Source: Escherichia phage FL12. From it: a stretch of DNA of 64,000 nucleotides. Position numbers and translations under genes: made by a program. The notes beneath the pieces were generated by a model. It was not told where the DNA came from. It worked only from the letters and a program-made list of their open reading frames with translations, and searched no databases. Position 1 is the stretch's first letter. Every line of letters begins with the position of its first letter. The stretch lies in the sequence record PP400786. One strand, given 5' to 3'. Below, in pieces: positions 1 through 62,421 of the stretch.

Positions 1-43
1 ATAAATATCTCCTATTTCTAAGAGTATTTATGTTCTCAAAATA

Positions 44-115
44 TGGCCCTGGGTGGAATTGAACCACCATCTGGCGATTATGAGTCGCTTGCTTGAACCT
101 TCCAGCTACAGGGCC
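44..115 (-). tRNA. tRNA-Ile (anticodon CAU)
   Basis: Reverse complement folds as a cloverleaf: acceptor GGCCCTG/CAGGGCC, T-arm GGTGG-TTCAATT-CCACC, anticodon loop CTCATAA, 3' CCA encoded. A CAU anticodon would read Met; assigned Ile (AUA-reading, lysidine-type) from T-even phage knowledge. Confidence 0.8.
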
Positions 116-121
116 TTGATA

Positions 122-194
122 TGCTGATTGACGGAATCGAACCGCCGACGTCCTCATTACAAGTGAGGTGCTCTACCTACTGAGCTAAATCGGC
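122..194 (-). tRNA. tRNA-Thr (anticodon UGU)
   Basis: Cloverleaf on reverse complement: D-arm GCTC-AGTAGGTA-GAGC, anticodon stem CCTCA/TGAGG with loop CTTGTAA, T-loop TTCGATT. One C-A mismatch in acceptor stem; CCA not encoded. Confidence 0.8.
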
Positions 195-201
195 GAAATT
201 A

Positions 202-288
202 CGGAGGCGATAGGATTTGAACCTATGAGTCGCCGGAGCGAATGCCGGTTTTCAAGACCGGTGCATTAAACCACTCTGCCACGCCTCC
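202..288 (-). tRNA. tRNA-Ser (anticodon UGA)
   Basis: 87 nt with long variable arm; acceptor GGAGGCG/CGCCTCC, anticodon stem-loop CCGGT-CTTGAAA-ACCGG, T-loop TTCAAAT. CCA not encoded. Confidence 0.85.
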
Positions 289-290
289 AG

Positions 291-364
291 TCTCCGTGGC
301 AGGATTTGAACCTACGACATTCTGCTCCCAAAGCAGACGCTCTACCAAACTGGGCTACACGGAG
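291..364 (-). tRNA. tRNA-Pro (anticodon UGG)
   Basis: Acceptor CTCCGTG/CACGGAG, anticodon stem TCTGC/GCAGA with loop TTTGGGA, T-arm GTAGGTTCAAATCCTGC. CCA not encoded. Confidence 0.8.
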
Positions 365-376
365 TAAATTAAATTT

Positions 377-448
<72 letters not shown>

Positions 449-454
449 AAACTT

Positions 455-541
455 TGGTACGAGAAGTGGGACTCGAACCCACAAGGAAATCATTCCGCAG
501 CATTTTAAGTGCTGTGCCTTTACCAATTTGACCATTCTCGC
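455..541 (-). tRNA. tRNA-Leu (anticodon UAA)
   Basis: 87 nt with long variable arm; anticodon stem CAGCA/TGCTG with loop CTTAAAA, T-arm GGGTTCGAGTCCC, 3' CCA encoded (plus-strand tgg at 455-457). Confidence 0.85.
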
Positions 542-542
542 G

Positions 543-615
543 CTGGGAATAAAGGACTCGAACCTTTGCATCTAGCAGTCAAAGTGCTATGCCTTACCAA
601 CTTGGCTAATTCCCA
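543..615 (-). tRNA. tRNA-Gln (anticodon UUG)
   Basis: Acceptor TGGGAAT/ATTCCCA, anticodon stem TAGCA/TGCTA with loop CTTTGAC, T-loop TTCGAGT. Separated from tRNA-Leu by 1 nt. CCA not encoded. Confidence 0.8.
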
Positions 616-681
616 ATTATTAACAAAGGCTCTCAAACAAGAACCCTTGATGATAGAGGGTATTAATCAGTGCGGTATGAG

Positions 682-709
682 TTAATAATAACAAATAATT
701 CTTAAAGCA
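682..709 (-). promoter_or_regulatory. Putative MotA-dependent middle promoter upstream of the tRNA cluster
   Basis: Minus-strand TGCTTTAAG (MotA-box-like TGCTT) followed about 12 nt later by TATTAT. The same 28 nt recur at 60639-60666 upstream of gene 31. Confidence 0.55.
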
Positions 710-1217
710 AATTAAACATTTTAACGGTCGGCAAAACAATTTCTTCTTCTATATAAGAGTATTTAACACTCTCAACTACACGCAAAAAATCATAATCATA
801 ATACTCAGAAGCATTACCTAAAATATTAATAAGTCCTTCAAGCACTTTATTACCATTCACAAAGAATAAGTCAAATACGCGTTCTTCGTCTTCTTCGGAT
901 TTATTACCAAGGTCAACTTCTATATCAAAGACCTTTTTAATGAATTCTGGATAAAGTTGTTCTGAGAACAGTCCTTCAACCAAGTATTCATAAATAAAAA
1001 GCGATTGCTCGCTGAACAAGCCATTACCACAATAACGTTCAGCTTTAGTACTAGAATGTCTACTTTTAAACTTCTTTAAAAGATATTGAAATTGTAAGAT
1101 TTCATGCTCTTCTACGCCAAACAGTGTTTTAGTTTTATAGTTGTCACCATCATTTTCCCAGGTAGTGACATCAATTACGTAACCCTGTGGAATTGTAGTA
1201 CCTAAACAAATATTCAT
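702..1217 (-). CDS. Hypothetical early protein, 171 aa
   Basis: ATG-initiated ORF, start overlaps stop of upstream ORF (ATGA). Last gene of a four-ORF operon between the internal-protein genes and the tRNAs. No motif recognised. Confidence 0.6.
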   Translation of the reverse strand: MNICLGTTIPQGYVIDVTTWENDGDNYKTKTLFGVEEHEILQFQYLLKKFKSRHSSTKAERYCGNGLFSEQSLFIYEYLVEGLFSEQLYPEFIKKVFDIEVDLGNKSEEDEERVFDLFFVNGNKVLEGLINILGNASEYYDYDFLRVVESVKYSYIEEEIVLPTVKMFNLL

Positions 1218-1507
1218 TTGCTCACCATATTAATGTAAGTATATTCAATACATTCAAGACCCAAAGGATTCTTGAAAATATCATATTCAAGAGGACCTTT
1301 TTCCGTTTCAATAAAGAAATCAAAATTTACTGTATTAAATTTACGGTCTTCCTTCACTAATTTAACCTGAGAAGATGAACGGTCAATGTAAACCTTTTCA
1401 ACTTCAAAACATGTTAAAATGCCATAATCATCAATCAAGGCTTTAGCCGCGTCTTGATCATATTTATATCCATTTTCAATGGATGATACTTTAGCATAAA
1501 GAATCAT
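1214..1507 (-). CDS. Hypothetical early protein, 97 aa
   Basis: ATG start 2 nt after the stop of the upstream ORF; same operon. No motif recognised. Confidence 0.55.
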   Translation of the reverse strand: MILYAKVSSIENGYKYDQDAAKALIDDYGILTCFEVEKVYIDRSSSQVKLVKEDRKFNTVNFDFFIETEKGPLEYDIFKNPLGLECIEYTYINMVSK

Positions 1508-1509
1508 TA

Positions 1510-1890
1510 TCAGCCTTCATCAACAATAGTATGAGTGTGGGCATTTACAATTTGCCACCAATCAAAGCGATTAGAACCATACATCGGTTTGTTTTCATTT
1601 TCTTTGATAATATCACGGAGTTCATCTTCGGTAGCGGCTTTCGCGATTAAATCAGCATATCCACCACGAGGATAATAATTATCACCTGCAAAAAGTAAAA
1701 AGTTTGGTTTAATATTATTAAACTCTTCAAGAGTAATAACTGTTCCACCAGGTTGAACAATCTCTACATAACTATATCCTAATTTTTGAGCAGCATCTAC
1801 TGCTTCAAGCAGGGTATCATGAGCCCATCCAATTTGGCAATCTGGCTTTTCAGATGGATTAGCCTGATAATCCGCGTACACTTTATACAT
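1510..1890 (-). CDS. Hypothetical early protein, 126 aa (ORF track shows a TTG-extended 137 aa form)
   Basis: First ATG at 1890 is preceded by AAAGGTGA; the track start at 1923 is TTG. Protein begins MYKVYADYQ. Function not recognised. Confidence 0.6.
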   Translation of the reverse strand: MYKVYADYQANPSEKPDCQIGWAHDTLLEAVDAAQKLGYSYVEIVQPGGTVITLEEFNNIKPNFLLFAGDNYYPRGGYADLIAKAATEDELRDIIKENENKPMYGSNRFDWWQIVNAHTHTIVDEG

Positions 1891-1891
1891 T

Positions 1892-2077
1892 CTATTCACC
1901 TTTAGAAATTTTATCCATAACAATAGCGATTAAACCAATTAAAAATGCTACTACAAGTGAAAACGCATTTTCTGCTGTAGTTAATAATCCGCATATAAAT
2001 CCAACAAACATTGAAAAACTAAAAGCGGAAGCAGAAATTGCAATAGCAACATTTCGAATTAATTCACAACGTTTCAT
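1892..2077 (-). CDS. Small predicted membrane protein, 61 aa
   Basis: ATG preceded by GAGGAG; two hydrophobic stretches (VAIAISASAFSFSMFVGFICGLL and FSLVVAFLIGLIAIV). First gene after early-promoter cassette A. Confidence 0.55.
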   Translation of the reverse strand: MKRCELIRNVAIAISASAFSFSMFVGFICGLLTTAENAFSLVVAFLIGLIAIVMDKISKGE

Positions 2078-2100
2078 TTTATTCTCCTCGGCAGTTGATA

Positions 2101-2135
2101 GGGTAATAATATCACTACCCTATTTAAAAGTAAAC
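2101..2135 (-). promoter_or_regulatory. T4-type early promoter (cassette A) with inverted repeat around the -10
   Basis: Minus-strand GTTTAC (-35-like), ~18-nt spacer ending in TG, then TATTAT; inverted repeat AGGGTA...TACCCT brackets the -10. Confidence 0.6.
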
Positions 2136-2147
2136 GGTTTTTATAAA

Positions 2148-2456
2148 CTATTTTATTCCGCGTGATGCAATTGTGTTCTGTCGTTTAACACCAGTTTGTT
2201 TAAAGTCATGGTCGTCAATTTGATCGGTACGAGCAACTCCGAATGATGATTTGATTTTAGCTTTAGATCCTTTAGTTATAGAAATAAACATCTCGGAAGC
2301 CCCTTTCTTAAAGTCCGAGGCGATTACTTCAACGCCGTTCTTAGCAAGTGACTTCAGAATTGCCTCCGCATACTCATCGTCAAGACTCGCCTGAGTATTA
2401 ATAACGAATGTCTTTGGCGCAGCCGCTTCATTGATAAATTCTTTAAATGTTTTCAT
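2148..2456 (-). CDS. Candidate capsid-targeted internal protein, 102 aa
   Basis: N-terminus MKTFKEFINE-AAAP resembles the T4 internal-protein capsid-targeting sequence (MKTYQEFIAE); basic C-terminus; own early promoter and AAGGA Shine-Dalgarno. Confidence 0.65.
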   Translation of the reverse strand: MKTFKEFINEAAAPKTFVINTQASLDDEYAEAILKSLAKNGVEVIASDFKKGASEMFISITKGSKAKIKSSFGVARTDQIDDHDFKQTGVKRQNTIASRGIK

Positions 2457-2485
2457 TTTATTTTCCTTATTTTCCTAATTAATTT

Positions 2486-2525
2486 TGATGAGGTAATAGT
2501 ATCACAACCCTATTTAAAAGTAAAC
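2486..2525 (-). promoter_or_regulatory. T4-type early promoter (cassette B)
   Basis: Minus-strand GTTTAC, ~18-nt spacer ending in TG, then TACTAT; shares a 39-nt identical leader (2467-2505) with cassette C (2800-2838). Confidence 0.6.
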
Positions 2526-2798
2526 TCATTTTAAATAAATTGCGTATTTTTTATAACCCGCTGACTCATGACGAAGACCCTTATCATTAGCAAAACGCTC
2601 AATGTTGTTAATTTGATTCTGATCAAGTTCAGAGATGTCAAACACGAAAAAGTTACGTTTGTTACCAACTGTTATATAGTCAGTTAAATCAATATCATAT
2701 AGGTAATTGATGTCAGCAATCAAAGTCTTGACAGCTTTGCTAATTTTTACTTTTTCGTTAAAAGCAGCTTCAGCAATAAATTCTTGATACGTTTTCAT
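2526..2798 (-). CDS. Candidate capsid-targeted internal protein, 90 aa, at the ipI position next to 57B
   Basis: N-terminus MKTYQEFIAE-AA matches the T4 capsid-targeting sequence exactly; predicted prohead-protease cleavage after Glu10. Whether the body is IPI itself or a variant cannot be decided without alignment. Confidence 0.7.
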   Translation of the reverse strand: MKTYQEFIAEAAFNEKVKISKAVKTLIADINYLYDIDLTDYITVGNKRNFFVFDISELDQNQINNIERFANDKGLRHESAGYKKYAIYLK

Positions 2799-2819
2799 TT
2801 TATTTTCCTAATTAATTTT

Positions 2820-2858
2820 GATGAGGTAATAGTATCACTACCTCATCAGTACGTAAAC
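2820..2858 (-). promoter_or_regulatory. T4-type early promoter (cassette C) with 9-bp inverted repeat
   Basis: Minus-strand GTTTAC, 17-nt spacer ending in TG, then TACTAT; perfect inverted repeat GATGAGGTA...TACCTCATC (2820-2847) brackets the -10. Confidence 0.6.
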
Positions 2859-2870
2859 AACTTTGTGAAA

Positions 2871-3567
<697 letters not shown>

Positions 3568-3568
<1 letters not shown>

Positions 3569-4293
3569 TATAGTACCTTTAGTGTATTTTTAATTTTAGA
3601 AAAAAGTTCTTCAAGAGAACCATCGTTTGTAATTACTAAATCGCCATCACGAATTGGCAATCCAGCTTCTGTAATATGTGTATCATTGGATTTTTGACCA
3701 GGACGAACTACATGAATTACTGTAGCATCCATCGCCCTAGCCGCATCCATTTCATGATCTTGACGAGTATCAGGAACGATATAATAATCATAACCCGAGT
3801 TAAATTTATCAAGATAATCTAAAGCAAATAATTTTACCCAGTACATGCGGTCGAAGTTATTAACAATCAAATCCGTACCTAGGGCTTGCATCAGACGACG
3901 GACTGACCATTGATCTTCAATATTATTTATAACGTCAGCAATTTTGTTAAATGCTACGAAATTAACTGATTCTTTTCCTTCGTCATCAAAAACAAACACA
4001 CCTTTAATTGGGCTTTTACCATTAAGATAGCAAAATGCTTGTTCCATAATCGTGATTACTTCTAATTTAGTCAGATTTAAATTAGTCTCACGATCATAGT
4101 CAATTCCTTCAAACTCTTTACGAGTTAAGCAAGGATAGTCAGTGTTTGCTGCAAATACTCCCCATGCATAAGCCAATGCGTCCTTAATAGGACCAGCAAG
4201 TTGGTATTTAACTGCAGAATAATTGCTCATGATAAAATCAGCAGTAGTATCTTTTCCACTACGCTTTACACCGCTTAAAAAGATTAGTTTCAT
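3568..4293 (-). CDS. 1: Gene 1 deoxynucleoside monophosphate kinase
   Basis: 241 aa from the first ATG (GAGGAG Shine-Dalgarno); P-loop GVKRSGKDT near N-terminus. The track's 254-aa form starts at TTG. Confidence 0.9.
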
Positions 4294-4342
4294 GTGTTTC
4301 TCCTCAAATTTAATTAAGATTATAACACACAAAACTGAAGCA

Positions 4343-4873
4343 TTAAACTTCTGCTATAATTTTTCCATCTTTTTCTACTTGAAAATAGGTGTAAGGAATC
4401 GTAGCTGTACATACTAAAGCCGGGTCTGAATCTTCCGTGTAGCTAAATTCTACTTCAGATAGGTCAGAAACCCAAGGCTTATAAAAATTTATTGACATCA
4501 CGATTTCAGTTTTGCTATTATCTAAGATGTAAAGCGTGATGTACTCAGGACCTGTTTTTTGGGCAGTATTTTCACCTGTAAGATAGTTGCTAGTTCCTAG
4601 CATCCATTCATACATTCCTATCCATGACTTAAGTTCTTCATCAACTATAAATCTCACAATGAGTGGATCATACTCGAATGTAACACCAGGACGTTGTGCT
4701 CGGCCCAGTCCAAACGGCCCAGTCACGGTATCAGTAACAGGTATTCTAATTCCTGGAATAGGAACTGACTGAGCATTTAAAGTAAAAGCAGATGTAGTAT
4801 TACTATGTGGTATTGATACTACAAAGTTAGTTGTATTTGCTTGGTTAAAAATTTGTTGCAGAGCTTGCGACAT
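4343..4873 (-). CDS. 3: Gene 3 tail completion / sheath stabiliser
   Basis: 176 aa from ATG at 4873 (GAGGA Shine-Dalgarno); the 203-aa track ORF is a TTG extension. Synteny 1-3-2-4. Confidence 0.85.
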   Translation of the reverse strand: MSQALQQIFNQANTTNFVVSIPHSNTTSAFTLNAQSVPIPGIRIPVTDTVTGPFGLGRAQRPGVTFEYDPLIVRFIVDEELKSWIGMYEWMLGTSNYLTGENTAQKTGPEYITLYILDNSKTEIVMSINFYKPWVSDLSEVEFSYTEDSDPALVCTATIPYTYFQVEKDGKIIAEV

Positions 4874-4979
4874 ATATTCCTCATAATGCTTTATAACTGT
4901 TGGTGGTATAATGGGTCTAAGTCCCTTCCATTCAATTCCATTTAGAACAAACAACAGAAAAGAATGGAAGATAATAGAA

Positions 4980-5804
4980 TTAGATATTTGACCAGACTTT
5001 GTTTGCAGAGAAACGTTTTCCTTTGGAGTAGAAGCTTTGGAGTGGCATCAACACAACGTTCGCCCAGTCTTTCGGGGCGATTTCAACAAGGCTACCCATA
5101 ATATTACCAGGTATATATGCCTTAATCATTTGGTCTGCACCCCTAAATCCTTTCACTTGACTCCAATCAATTTTTAATTTCGTTTTATTAGTAATAGTAG
5201 GTGTATTTGCATATTGCTTTAAAAGCTCTTCTAGAAATTGCTGGCGAGCTTTAGGTGGAATATAGTGCAAGTTTAATCCGTACATTAAATTATGCTTACC
5301 TAAACCAAGGTAAATTATCAAAGGAAATTTATCCCAGTAAGGAAGAGTTTCCTTGTGTTTAGCATCATAAGCAAAAGCATATATTCGTCCCGGCTGCGGG
5401 CGAACAACTTTATGTCCTTTTACTTGCTTAATAGTTTCAGCAAACCATTTTCTGGTTTTATTATTAATTGCTGCGCCTTCATTACGAATTTTATCACGCA
5501 ATGTTTGCCTGAATGAATTTATCATAAGCAGTTGTCTTTCTTGCTTATTGAGTTTATTCATTGGTTTTGATTCAAGCTTTTGAATCTTTTCAGCTGTTTT
5601 AATTCCTGAAGCATATTTTGACATTGCCGAAGTAAACGTAGAGTATTTGATTCCTCTTTCTTCAGCAAATTGCTTTCCTGTCATTCCTTTTGCTTTGGCC
5701 TTTTTATATTCAAGACCTATCTGAATCCATTTCTTTTCGTTTAATGATTGCTTAACCTTTGGAACTTGGGGAGTGCTTTCATTAATTATTTGAAAAATAG
5801 CCAT
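4980..5804 (-). CDS. 2: Gene 2 DNA end-protector protein
   Basis: 274 aa, basic; ATG preceded by AAGGGGG; position between genes 3 and 4. Confidence 0.85.
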
Positions 5805-6256
5805 TATGCCCCCTTAAAGCCAAGAGCTCGTAATCCATCTTCTGTTAGAATTCTAAATTTTATTCCACGCTTTTCAGCTAAAGATTGTGCTGCTTTCCAT
5901 TTGTCAGTGTTCACAGACCAGGTATAAATTTCATTCATAAATCTTTTCTTCGCTGCGGTTGTTAGATGTGCCGGTTTAACTGGTGGTTGTGTTTCTTTTT
6001 TAGGTTTTATTTCAATAAAAAATTCTTGCCCAGAAGAATCTTTCATCCAAATATCCATGAAGTATCTACGTTTTTTCCCTTCTGCATTACAAAAATAAGG
6101 AATTACTGCTGTTTCACTACCCCATGCAATAATTTCTGGATTTTTATCTAACCATTCAAAAAAGAATTTTTCCCAATTTGATCTATACGTAATTTTTTTA
6201 GGGTCACCTCTATACTTTGATATATTTTTAGGAACCCATTTTCCAGAATATGCCAT
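5804..6256 (-). CDS. 4: Gene 4 head completion protein
   Basis: 150 aa; late promoter TATAAATA about 27 nt upstream on the minus strand; diverges from gene 53. Confidence 0.85.
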
Positions 6257-6267
6257 TGGATTCTCCT

Positions 6268-6290
6268 TATAAATAGATAATATATTTATA
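6268..6290. promoter_or_regulatory. Divergent late promoters for gene 53 (plus) and gene 4 (minus)
   Basis: TATAAATA at 6268-6275 on the plus strand, 28 nt before the gene 53 ATG; reverse-complement TATAAATA at 6283-6290 about 27 nt before the gene 4 ATG. Confidence 0.75.
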
Positions 6291-6303
6291 AACAGGAGGG
6301 CCC

Positions 6304-6894
6304 ATGCTCTTTACATTTTTTGACCCGATTGAATATGCGGCCAAAACGGTGAATAAAAACGCGCCGACTATTCCTATGACAGATATTTTTAGAAACTATA
6401 AAGACTATTTTAAACGCGCTCTTGCGGGATACCGCTTACGTACTTATTATATCAAAGGTTCACCCCGCCCAGAAGAATTAGCAAATGCTATATATGGAAA
6501 TCCGCAGTTGTATTGGGTTTTATTGATGTGTAATGATAATTACGATCCGTATTATGGATGGATTACTTCACAGGAAGCTGCTTATCAAGCATCTATACAA
6601 AAATACAAAAATGTAGGTGGAGACCAGATAGTATATCATGTGAATGAGAACGGTGAAAAATTTTATAATTTAGTATCATACGATGATAATCCATATGTTT
6701 GGTATGATAAAGGCGATAAAGCTAGAAAATATCCTCAATATGAAGGAGCACTTGCTGCGGTCGATACGTATGAAGCGGCTGTTCTTGAAAATGAAAAACT
6801 TCGTCAAATAAAAATAATAGCAAAATCAGACATCAATTCATTTATGAACGACCTTATACGTATAATGGAGAAATCTTATGGAAATGATAAGTAA
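6304..6894 (+). CDS. 53: Gene 53 baseplate wedge protein
   Basis: 196 aa; late promoter upstream; overlaps the gene 5 start by 17 nt. Confidence 0.85.
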   Translation: MLFTFFDPIEYAAKTVNKNAPTIPMTDIFRNYKDYFKRALAGYRLRTYYIKGSPRPEELANAIYGNPQLYWVLLMCNDNYDPYYGWITSQEAAYQASIQKYKNVGGDQIVYHVNENGEKFYNLVSYDDNPYVWYDKGDKARKYPQYEGALAAVDTYEAAVLENEKLRQIKIIAKSDINSFMNDLIRIMEKSYGNDK

Positions 6895-15403: not shown

Positions 15404-16400
15404 TTCAAGTGTTATCTATCGTGCGATAGTTACTTCAAAATTTAGAACAGAAAAAATGTTGAATTTTTATAATTCAATTGGAAGTGGTCCGGATAAAAAC
15501 ACTATCTTTATCACATTTGGAAGATCAGAACCGTGGTCATCAAATGAAAATGAGGTGGGCTTTGCCCCACCTTATCCTACCGATTCTGTATTAGGCGTAA
15601 CTGACATGTGGACTCATATGATGGGAACTGTAAAGGTTCTTCCATCTATGCTTGATGCAGTTATTCCTCGTAGAGATTGGGGAGATACTAGATATCCTGA
15701 TCCATACACATTTAGAATTAACGATATTGTAGTGTGTAACTCAGCTCCTTACAATGCTACTGAATCAGGCGCAGGCTGGTTAGTATATCGTTGTTTAGAT
15801 GTTCCTGACACAGGAATGTGTTCAATCGCATCTTTAACTGATAAGGATGAATGCCTTAAGTTAGGTGGAAAATGGACTCCTTCTGCTAGGTCAATGACTC
15901 CTCCTGAAGGTCGAGGAGACGCGGAAGGAACAATCGAACCCGGCGACGGATATGTTTGGGAATATCTTTTTGAGATTCCGCCTGATGTATCTATAAATAG
16001 ATGCACGAATGAATACATCGTGGTTCCTTGGCCTGAAGAATTAAAAGAAGACCCGACTAGATGGGGATATGAAGATAATCTCACTTGGCAACAAGATGAT
16101 TTTGGATTAATTTACCGTGTTAAGGCAAATACTATCCGTTTTAAAGCATATTTAGATTCAGTTTATTTTCCTGAAGCTGCATTGCCAGGAAATAAAGGAT
16201 TTAGACAAATATCAATAATCACGAATCCTCTTGAAGCTAAAGCTCATCCAAATGACCCAAACGTTAAAGCTGAAAAGGATTATTATGATCCGGAAGATTT
16301 AATGAGGCATTCGGGCGAAATGATTTATATGGAAAATAGGCCACCTATTATTATGGCAATGGATCAGACAGAAGAAATCAATATTCTGTTTACATTTTAA
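15396..16400 (+). CDS. 8: Gene 8 baseplate wedge protein
   Basis: 334 aa; overlaps the gene 7 end. Confidence 0.9.
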   Translation: MNDSSVIYRAIVTSKFRTEKMLNFYNSIGSGPDKNTIFITFGRSEPWSSNENEVGFAPPYPTDSVLGVTDMWTHMMGTVKVLPSMLDAVIPRRDWGDTRYPDPYTFRINDIVVCNSAPYNATESGAGWLVYRCLDVPDTGMCSIASLTDKDECLKLGGKWTPSARSMTPPEGRGDAEGTIEPGDGYVWEYLFEIPPDVSINRCTNEYIVVPWPEELKEDPTRWGYEDNLTWQQDDFGLIYRVKANTIRFKAYLDSVYFPEAALPGNKGFRQISIITNPLEAKAHPNDPNVKAEKDYYDPEDLMRHSGEMIYMENRPPIIMAMDQTEEINILFTF

Positions 16401-59365: not shown

Positions 59366-59405
59366 GTGTAAGATAATACTATCACAAAGGAACCATGCTG
59401 TAAAC
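59366..59405 (-). promoter_or_regulatory. T4-type early promoter upstream of the 30.8 ORF
   Basis: Minus strand GTTTAC, ~17-nt spacer ending in TG, then TAGTAT. Confidence 0.55.
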
Positions 59406-62382: not shown

Positions 62383-62421
62383 GGTAGAGCTATAATATCA
62401 CAACTCTACCGTAAAGTAAAC
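62383..62421 (-). promoter_or_regulatory. T4-type early promoter with inverted repeat, upstream of the cd.2 ORF
   Basis: Minus strand GTTTAC, ~18-nt spacer ending in TG, then TATTAT; inverted repeat GGTAGAG...CTCTACC brackets the -10. Confidence 0.55.

Follow-up and report, generated by a model that had tools for sequence, protein, structure and literature searches.

The window is the whole stretch of DNA that we analysed, 64,000 nt from Escherichia phage FL12 (PP400786), a T4-like myovirus (Tequatrovirus). A query of ~1.5 kb taken from the region described here matched 802 phage records, mainly Escherichia and Shigella Tequatrovirus, with identities of up to ~96%. Along the minus strand of positions 1-6500 the genes follow in the transcription order gp4, gp2, gp3, gp1, 57A, 57B, a 90-aa ORF, a 102-aa ORF, trna.4, the trna.3/trna.2 homologues, a 171-aa ORF and seven tRNA genes. 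This is the gene order of T4 at 74.6-72.4 kb, where ipI is the sole gene from 57B to trna.4. The features of the locus, in transcription order, are as follows.

2871..3329, minus strand: 57B homologue (phrog_755), the conserved upstream boundary of the hyperplastic locus.
2799..2858, minus strand: cassette C, between 57B and the 90-aa internal head protein gene (repeat search, pattern scan, folding); -35 GTTTAC 2858-2853; TG 2837-2836; -10 TACTAT 2834-2829; 5′ arm TGATGAGGTA 2848-2839 and 3′ arm TACCTCATCA 2828-2819 (10-bp inverted repeat); predicted start ~2822; leader to 2799; ATG 2798-2796.
2526..2798, minus strand: 90-aa internal head protein gene (phrog_7673, 3.6e-55), with capsid-targeting sequence (CTS) MKTYQEFIAE.
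2457..2525, minus strand: cassette B, between the 90-aa and 102-aa internal head protein genes (repeat search, pattern scan, folding); -35 2525-2520, abutting the TGA stop at 2528-2526; TG 2504-2503; -10 TACTAT 2501-2496; A-type 5′ half ATAGGGTT 2513-2506 and C-type 3′ half TACCTCATCA 2495-2486; predicted start ~2489; leader with a 9-nt tandem duplication of the Shine-Dalgarno sequence (SD) 2458-2475; ATG 2456-2454.
2148..2456, minus strand: 102-aa internal head protein gene (phrog_2667, 2.9e-41), with CTS MKTFKEFINE.
2078..2135, minus strand: cassette A, between the 102-aa internal head protein gene and trna.4 (repeat search, pattern scan, folding); -35 2135-2130; TG 2114-2113; -10 TATTAT 2111-2106; 5′ arm ATAGGGTA 2123-2116 and 3′ arm TACCCTAT 2105-2098 (8-bp inverted repeat); predicted start ~2099; SD GAGGAG; ATG 2077-2075.
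1892..2077, minus strand: trna.4 homologue (phrog_1692), a predicted membrane protein of 61 aa, the first gene after cassette A.
44-615, minus-strand unit: seven tRNA genes (tRNA/Rfam scan).

The 90-aa and 102-aa ORFs thus occupy the exact position of T4 ipI, between 57B and trna.4. Both carry the N-terminal CTS of internal proteins (IPs), ~10 residues of the form MKT(Y/F)(Q/K)EFIxE, ended by the prohead-protease motif (L/I)xE, as in the cleavage rule established for T4, and the same CTS N-termini occur in 30 or more relatives. The 90-aa gene makes up the body of a repeat unit of 333 bp, which phage G8 lacks. Cassette A heads the unit trna.4-trna.3-trna.2-ORF171-tRNA. The initial annotation had the cassettes driving internal-protein genes and a downstream operon; the gene identities, with PHROG ‘internal head protein’ matches and 57B and trna.4 as flanks, fit that claim. 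An Rfam search of positions 1-6500 (E≤1) returned only the seven tRNAs and sub-threshold noise, with no known RNA family at the cassettes.

The three cassettes form a single direct-repeat family with copies at 2077-2135, 2467-2525 and 2800-2858, 73-86% identical and spaced 390 and 333 nt apart. Their elements can be read in the correct sense on the minus strand only. Each takes up ~60 nt and consists of GTTTAC, a 17-bp spacer (15 nt to TGA-TA(C/T)TAT), a TG-extended -10, an A/U-rich leader, an SD and an ATG. The pattern GTTTAC-N15-TGnTAnnnT has six matches in the window where 0.09 would be expected, every one of them on the minus strand; three of these matches (2106-2135, 2496-2525 and 2829-2858) are the cassettes, and the remaining three are homologous to T4 early promoters elsewhere along the genome. 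The threefold GTTTAC module with TG-extended -10 that had been described here is thus confirmed. In all three copies the elements are those of a T4 early promoter, GTTTAC supplying the sigma-70 hexamer TTTACN, with a 17-bp spacer and a TGn-extended TAnnnT, and each cassette would therewith hold a strong sigma-70-type T4 early promoter (TTTACN, 17 bp, TG-extended TAYTAT), an open A/U-rich leader and an SD. Upstream of the -35, where an A/T-rich, UP-like region would be expected, cassette C has aaaataatttcacaaagtt, common to several T4 early promoters; cassette B has coding sequence there up to the TGA. At the ipI locus the T4 GenBank and RefSeq records annotate neither promoters nor transcription start sites.

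Cassettes B and C are identical over 39 nt (2467-2505 and 2800-2838). The identity had been noted before as that of a leader; it is exact, and it covers more than the leader, since it spans the TG, the -10 and the 3′ arm as well. The 51 nt that follow reach into the coding starts; they are 84% identical between the two and encode MKTFKEFINEAA and MKTYQEFIAEAA, so that the near-identical first codons specifying the CTS (MKTYQEFIAE and MKTFKEFINE) are also as described.

An inverted repeat brackets the -10 in two of the three cassettes. As sense RNA, cassette C folds into a hairpin of 13 bp, including G.U pairs into the TG and -10 (-17.4 kcal/mol, z -5.25), and cassette A into one of 11 bp, again with G.U pairs into the TG and -10 (-12.7 kcal/mol, z -3.44); both are retained when folded in a context of 131 nt. 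RNA folding of cassette B gave no significant hairpin (-3.2 kcal/mol, z +0.69). The earlier claim that such a repeat is found in all cassettes accordingly stands for C (10 bp) and A (8 bp) and fails for B, and the stem-loop that belongs to the published definition of promoter-early stem-loop elements (PeSLs, discussed below) is likewise present in C and A and missing from B. The leaders that the cassettes' own promoters would produce are unstructured (z +0.3 to +1.0); the initial annotation had proposed folding the leader RNA, and it is the region straddling the -10, in C and A, that holds the hairpins. Between the end of the 3′ arm and the SD lie 12-14 nt in A and C, and SD and AUG are open in the 131-nt folds.

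The arms of cassette B are mismatched, the 5′ arm being A-type (ATAGGGTT) and the 3′ arm C-type (TACCTCATC), which is why they yield no significant fold. Its -35/spacer half equals that of A up to position -18 (at -17, B has T and A has A); in the -10/leader half it matches C exactly. On sequence grounds, cassette B is a chimera that joins A-type sequence in its 5′ half to C-type sequence in its 3′ half, the product of a crossover. The same hybrid junction is found in four other phages (loci L001, L002, L020 and L029), so that hybrids lacking the hairpin persist in five phages. Because B and its homologues persist in this state, the hairpin is dispensable at internal junctions. Between C and A themselves, the arms differ by two adjacent compensatory pair changes (G-C to A-T and A-T to G-C).

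Cassette structure is shared with related phages, a point on which the original proposal could have fallen. T4 has a C-type cassette before ipI and an A-related cassette before trna.4. Its ipI cassette differs from cassette C in one spacer base (C has G for A after GTTTAC) and C has one A fewer before the ATG; its trna.4 promoter is a homologue of cassette A with few base differences. The interval from 57B to trna.4 holds one IP gene in T4 and in G8, two in the window, three in G4498 and four in UFV-AREG1, and zero to five in 36 relatives from IMG/VR. A cassette precedes most of these genes; in some relatives ATGA overlaps are found instead (translational coupling). Compared with G8, the window has the 90-aa module in addition, and the end points of this module fall inside the repeated stretch of -10, leader and ATGAAAAC. 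The locus therefore shows the indels that mark PeSLs: zero to five IP genes, a repeat-bounded indel relative to G8 and the chimeric cassette B. It shows their position too, with cassettes that are intergenic, reach from a stop codon to SD and ATG and lie between small non-essential ORFs of a hyperplastic region.

Across the loci, the -35/spacer half stays associated with the gene upstream, and the -10-distal half with the gene downstream. Matched junctions, with the hairpin intact, are the rule at the first and last positions; the internal ones are hybrids like B. Such half-and-half junctions are, as far as sequence comparison can tell, the expected outcome of homologous exchange within the cassette. 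This modifies the suggestion that effector bodies are swapped behind a constant promoter and targeting tag: the variable IP number, the repeat-bounded indel and chimeric B speak for swapping, but the promoter is not a constant unit, as its halves travel with different genes. Internal proteins are injected and inhibit restriction enzymes of the GmrSD type, each internal protein acting on one enzyme variant (PMC12373910), and the cassette structure would give T-even phages a means to reshuffle this anti-defence arsenal rapidly. For annotation, the cassettes, once recognized, pin down where genes start, where promoters lie and where modules end, at a locus mostly labelled ‘hypothetical’ by pipelines.

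To ask what the inverted repeat is, its pairing was compared over many promoters. The set comprised 106 unique promoter-like cassettes, taken from T4 (127.9 kb), the window and relatives; ~18% of them have stems of at least 6 bp in the register symmetric about the -10, compared with 0-3% when the register is slid by 1-4 nt and 3.3% with permuted partners. A perfect helix of at least 7 bp straddles the -10 at 24 of 57 unique ipI-locus junctions; partner permutation gave 5.5 (maximum 14 in 500) and shuffled 3′ segments 1.1. In a fixed-register alignment 45 cells were changed on both sides against 31.7±4.1 expected, a value reached by none of 500 shuffles, and 53.7% of cells were paired against 33-45% in slid registers. 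The place of the arms is taken by at least ten sequences unrelated to one another, among them TGATGAGGTA, ATAGGGTA, GGTAGGACTA, GTGTAGGGATA and AGGGCTAT/AGGGTTAT, and further GATGGGATA, GACAAGACTA, AGTTGACAAGATTA, GGTAGAG and GGTGTAAGAT. An IMG/VR scan for GTTTAC-N15-TGATAYTAT contributed a few new arm variants among the matches listed, which were dominated by unrelated contigs.

The inverted repeat straddling the -10 is thus under selection, and the suspicion voiced earlier that it goes beyond promoter function alone is upheld by the register, permutation and both-side-change tests, in all of which the arms covary. That the repeats are a mere residue of recent duplication, with palindromes arisen by chance, could draw on the local duplication of the cassettes and on the consensus gTGaTAcTAT, which alone supplies three inner pairs. 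Against this are the six promoter matches for 0.09 expected, fold z-scores down to -5.25, the permutation and slid-register controls and the compensatory differences between C and A; covariation and controls rule the reading out, and we give it a negligible probability. A palindrome centred on the -10 might also be the operator of a dimeric DNA-binding regulator that shuts off early promoters, all the more as the mechanism of T4 early-promoter shut-off has been stated to be unknown (PMC2988021). However, the arms differ wholly between promoters and phages yet remain complementary, and the majority of T4 early promoters have no straddling inverted repeat. Since the arms are unrelated in sequence yet complementary, base pairing rather than a sequence-specific protein site is the likely object of selection; a repressor operator is very improbable and was rejected.

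The position of the arms relative to the start suggests when such pairing could matter. In C and A the promoter spacer is complementary to the first ~9 nt past the -10. The start is predicted 7 nt past the -10 (~2822, ~2489 and ~2099 for C, B and A), which falls within the 3′ arm; in the T4 record the promoter name Pe133295, given to the hairpin-bearing cd.3 promoter, fits a start 7-8 nt past the -10 and again within the 3′ arm. With the start inside the 3′ arm, transcripts from a cassette's own promoter would lack the hairpin and have an open leader. The hairpin would form only on RNA reading through from upstream, ~20 nt past the upstream stop codon. At cassette C, 12 nt separate the 57B stop codon from the -35 that follows it. 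Because the upstream stop codon abuts the -35, the hairpin would have been squeezed into the spacer and the discriminator, the only unconstrained positions of the promoter.

We consider it probable that these are T-even early-promoter/leader (‘PeSL-like’) cassettes in which the straddling hairpin is a boundary element for read-through transcription and the repeats serve as homology for the exchange of IP modules. The hairpin would mark the end of the upstream module, as an attenuator or terminator, as a pause site, or as a 3′-end barrier against exonucleases that protects the upstream cistron. It would in this way insulate each gene module, in place of the canonical terminator that stands just upstream of other T4 early promoters. 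The invariant -10, leader and first CTS codons would offer 40-60 nt of homology to the T4 recombination system for the insertion, deletion and exchange of IP gene modules, and cassette B would be the scar of one such exchange, with the crossover inside the -10 loop. The boundary role, which we favour, amounts to a slight widening of the published reading of such stem-loops as terminators or attenuators.

The hairpins of the window are unlikely to act as canonical intrinsic (Rho-independent) terminators, because no U-tract follows them on either strand (the 3′ flanks are AAAAUUAAUU (AAAAUUAA) and CAACUGCC) and a terminator scan was silent at the hairpins (2098-2123 and 2819-2848); this class was rejected for the elements. 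A relation to terminators is visible in another way. T4-like early promoters with a canonical hairpin and T-run just upstream carry no straddling helix (0 of 16), compared with 44 of 224 others (Fisher p=0.048). This suggests that the straddling hairpin and a canonical upstream terminator may be alternatives doing the same job, an exclusivity that is marginal at p about 0.05.

The same design straddles the -10 at T4 ipII (12 bp), ipIII, dmd, mobD.2a (14 bp), cd.3 and 30.7. The first two belong to the second IP locus of T4, whose cassettes are analogous and have other arms (12 bp, CCTAGAATTGTG/CACAATTCTAGG, at ipII; 8-9 bp at ipIII). A wider proposal, possible in our view but doubtful, is that selection has made hairpins across the start a general feature of early promoters in T4-like phages, with one arm in the promoter spacer and the other just past the -10 or on the SD; they would tag read-through RNA for decay, processing or translation and not be simply terminators, the ipI cassettes being one instance.

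A related reading places the effect after transcription at these genes: with only the read-through RNA structured, its processing (RNase E entry, 5′/3′ protection) or its translation would be altered, and IP expression would depend on the promoter used. The predicted start inside the 3′ arm, leaving a cassette's own transcripts unstructured, agrees with this, as does an AU-rich, RNase E-like sequence 3′ of the hairpin. The same logic is known for T4 e, soc, 49 and I-TevI (PMC3014915), where the promoter lies inside a hairpin, so that proximal transcripts lack the 5′ arm and read-through ones fold. It has a counterpart in a second class of T4-like early promoters, in which the spacer is complementary to the SD, with helices of at least 7 bp in 15 of 91 against 2.9 permuted; examples are ATCTCCATTTG/CAAATGGAGAT and, at T4 denV, TCTCCTGTAG/CTACAGGAGA. 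The T4 e group, however, has late promoters and buries SD and AUG, whereas cassettes A and C have an early promoter and a free SD; hairpins that bury the SD do exist at other T4-like early promoters. As SD and AUG are open in the 131-nt folds of A and C, translational masking does not apply there, and we regard this reading as unlikely for the ipI cassettes.

The pairing might instead matter in DNA, a hairpin or cruciform at the -10 being kept for cassette exchange as a preferred substrate for recombination or template switching (e.g. by endonuclease VII or a dedicated DNA-binding protein). Cassette B has its crossover in the -10 loop, and L020 carries a tandem duplication of the -10 and the 3′ arm. 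The T4 record notes that an earlier report gave the 14 nt separating the arms at the cd.3 promoter as their inverted complement, a recombination protein binding the stem-loop has been speculated on (Arbiol 2010, PMC2839356), and hairpins in DNA reach significance for either strand (z -3.9/-4.6 for C). These DNA hairpins are nevertheless weak (-5 to -8 kcal/mol, with 10-nt loops), and crossovers in the loop are expected anyway because the loop is the longest invariant stretch. Natural inversions of the loop between the arms were found in no locus; the three hits all came from the T4 ipII promoter, whose loop is nearly palindromic. Folding is stronger for sense RNA than for antisense RNA or DNA, although the promoter consensus itself contributes part of this, and the stem is extended by G.U pairs only as sense RNA (-17.4 against -13.7 kcal/mol). 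Single-sided stem changes on the sense strand give G.U in 10 cases and A.C in 5, numbers that lean towards RNA and are too small to decide between RNA and DNA. Selection for evolvability would also be weak beside a direct effect on expression. The DNA-level reading is the less economical and, to our judgement, quite improbable, and the boundary element acting on read-through RNA is retained.

In the account that Arbiol 2010 gives of Repoila 1994 (EMBO J 13:4181), ‘PeSL-like sequences’ at the two T-even IP loci consist of T4 early promoters whose stem-loops are weaker and A/T-rich, and IP shuffling was proposed to take place through them (PMC2839356). As far as that account goes, these elements share with the window the locus 57B-ipI-trna.4, the T4 early-promoter base, the A/T-rich stem-loops, the conserved leader and CTS codons, and the variable number and identity of IP genes. 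No essential difference emerges from it: the window is a further allele, with 90-aa and 102-aa IP genes, one chimeric junction and a 9-nt SD duplication. The cassettes are thus, within what that account describes, the already published PeSL-like elements of T-even IP loci, ordinary for this phage group. The initial annotation is supported, its observation being essentially right and its interpretation right. What is added here is cassette B as a crossover chimera, quantitative covariation of the stem straddling the -10, its exclusivity with canonical terminators and the anti-SD variant, which leave the classification unaffected. Neither PeSL paper (Arbiol 2010, Comeau 2014) reports covariation, the start-inside-arm geometry, the anti-SD class or terminator exclusivity.

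Arbiol 2010 describes PeSL subclasses with the stem-loop between -35 and -10 or overlapping the -10, reads them as terminators or attenuators of upstream transcription, and places the crossovers of PeSL mini-circles between the -10 and the ATG (PMC2839356). Comeau 2014 extended PeSLs to the PST/T4 pair, with the consensus TTTACW-N17-TAYWAT (PMC4122927). The PeSLs of RB49/phi1, PST/T4 and nt-1/KVP40 share with our cassettes the composite of stop codon, A/T-rich region, early promoter, stem-loop, SD and ATG, and are likewise found at indels in hyperplastic regions, with crossovers from the -10 to the ATG. The IP-locus elements were called analogues, not homologues (PMC2839356). In RB49 the stems are G/C-rich (GGGG..CCCC) on TTGACA promoters and one has been shown to terminate; the stems of the window are A/T-richer, on GTTTAC promoters and lack a U-tract. 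That one RB49 stem-loop, G/C-rich and the only one in the literature put to a reporter test, lowered lacZ as much as rrnB T1 (PMC2839356).

Integron gene cassettes offer a more distant likeness. There too, small gene modules, promoter-less or self-contained, are swapped at one fixed site by way of a junction element that is repeated and forms an imperfect palindrome, giving a variable array of defence or counter-defence genes. At the ipI locus there is no integrase and no attC or attI, and each side of a module carries half a promoter. Unlike in integrons, exchange here presumably proceeds by general T4 homologous recombination over 40-60 nt.

The helix that straddles the -10, in which a spacer arm pairs with an arm just 3′ of the -10, was found at none of the 16 early promoters that have a canonical G/C hairpin and T-run directly upstream, versus 44/224 (p = 0.048). 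Promoters with this upstream arrangement include the following, L-numbers denoting compared phage sequences, mostly ipI loci of relatives:

T4 15288, 55384, 58780, 130310, 146875 and 163673: early promoters, canonical hairpin and T-run directly upstream
L007 ∼4460–4490: the same
L040 ∼5055–5090: the same

A second class of early promoters carries in the spacer a pyrimidine-rich 'anti-SD', complementary to the SD downstream; examples of the pair are TCCTTTGT/ACAAAGGA and ATCTCCATTTG/CAAATGGAGAT. Complementarity of at least 7 bp between spacer and SD was present in 15 of 91 promoters, compared with 2.9 when the pairs were permuted. In anti-SD promoters the ribosome-binding site would be masked on read-through RNA only.

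Window 59376–59405, minus strand: anti-SD early promoter
T4 65413, 53943, 62797 and 130310: anti-SD early promoters
L006, L011, L022 and L037, ∼4665–4790: anti-SD early promoters

At the second internal protein (IP) locus of T4 there is a separate pair of cassettes, 5′ of ipII and ipIII (15819–15933 and 16516–16602 of L042, which carries these upstream regions). Their inverted repeats around the -10 measure 12 bp and 8–9 bp (core AATTGTG/CACAATT), and the leader aaaatatttaaaggaaacatATGAAAACATATCAAGAA is common to both. At the cd.3 early promoter (window 62392–62421, minus strand; T4 133293–133331) a 7-bp inverted repeat, GGTAGAG/CTCTACC, flanks the -10. The T4 record annotates 133300–133313 as a misc_feature, 'inverted complement of previously reported sequence', and because this interval coincides exactly with the 14-nt loop between the arms, the entry goes back to a sequencing artefact or else to an inversion of the loop templated by the hairpin.

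Duplications occur within B-type junctions, the chimeric cassettes. In the leader of the 102-aa IP gene (window 2458–2475, minus strand) the 9-nt TTATTTTCC (sense AGGAAAATA) stands twice in tandem, creating two SD-like boxes 5′ of the ATG; the homologous junctions of L001, L002 and L029 have one copy. In the B-type junction of L020 (∼5176–5245) the -10 and 3′ arm are duplicated in tandem (TGATACTATtacctcatcaaGATACTATtacctcatcaa), a scar of slippage or unequal exchange within the cassette.

Many relatives lack a promoter cassette in front of their first IP-like gene, which overlaps the 57B stop, so that IP genes can, judging from the sequence, also be translationally coupled.

L006, L011, L015, L017, L020, L022–L025, L027, L028, L030–L032, L037, L038 and L040, ∼4456: ATGA overlap at the 57B stop

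A weak A/U-rich hairpin of 9 bp, AAAUAAUUU/AAGUUGUUU, is predicted in a 131-nt fold (window 2853–2876, minus strand). It takes in the -35 of cassette C, the cassette preceding the 90-aa IP gene, together with the 57B stop/UP-like region. A 171-aa ORF (window 702–1217, minus strand; phrog_2290, unknown function) separates the trna.2 homologue from the tRNA cluster; a gene at this position is absent in T4 and present in L005 and L008, and the ORF is one more indel in this hyperplastic region.
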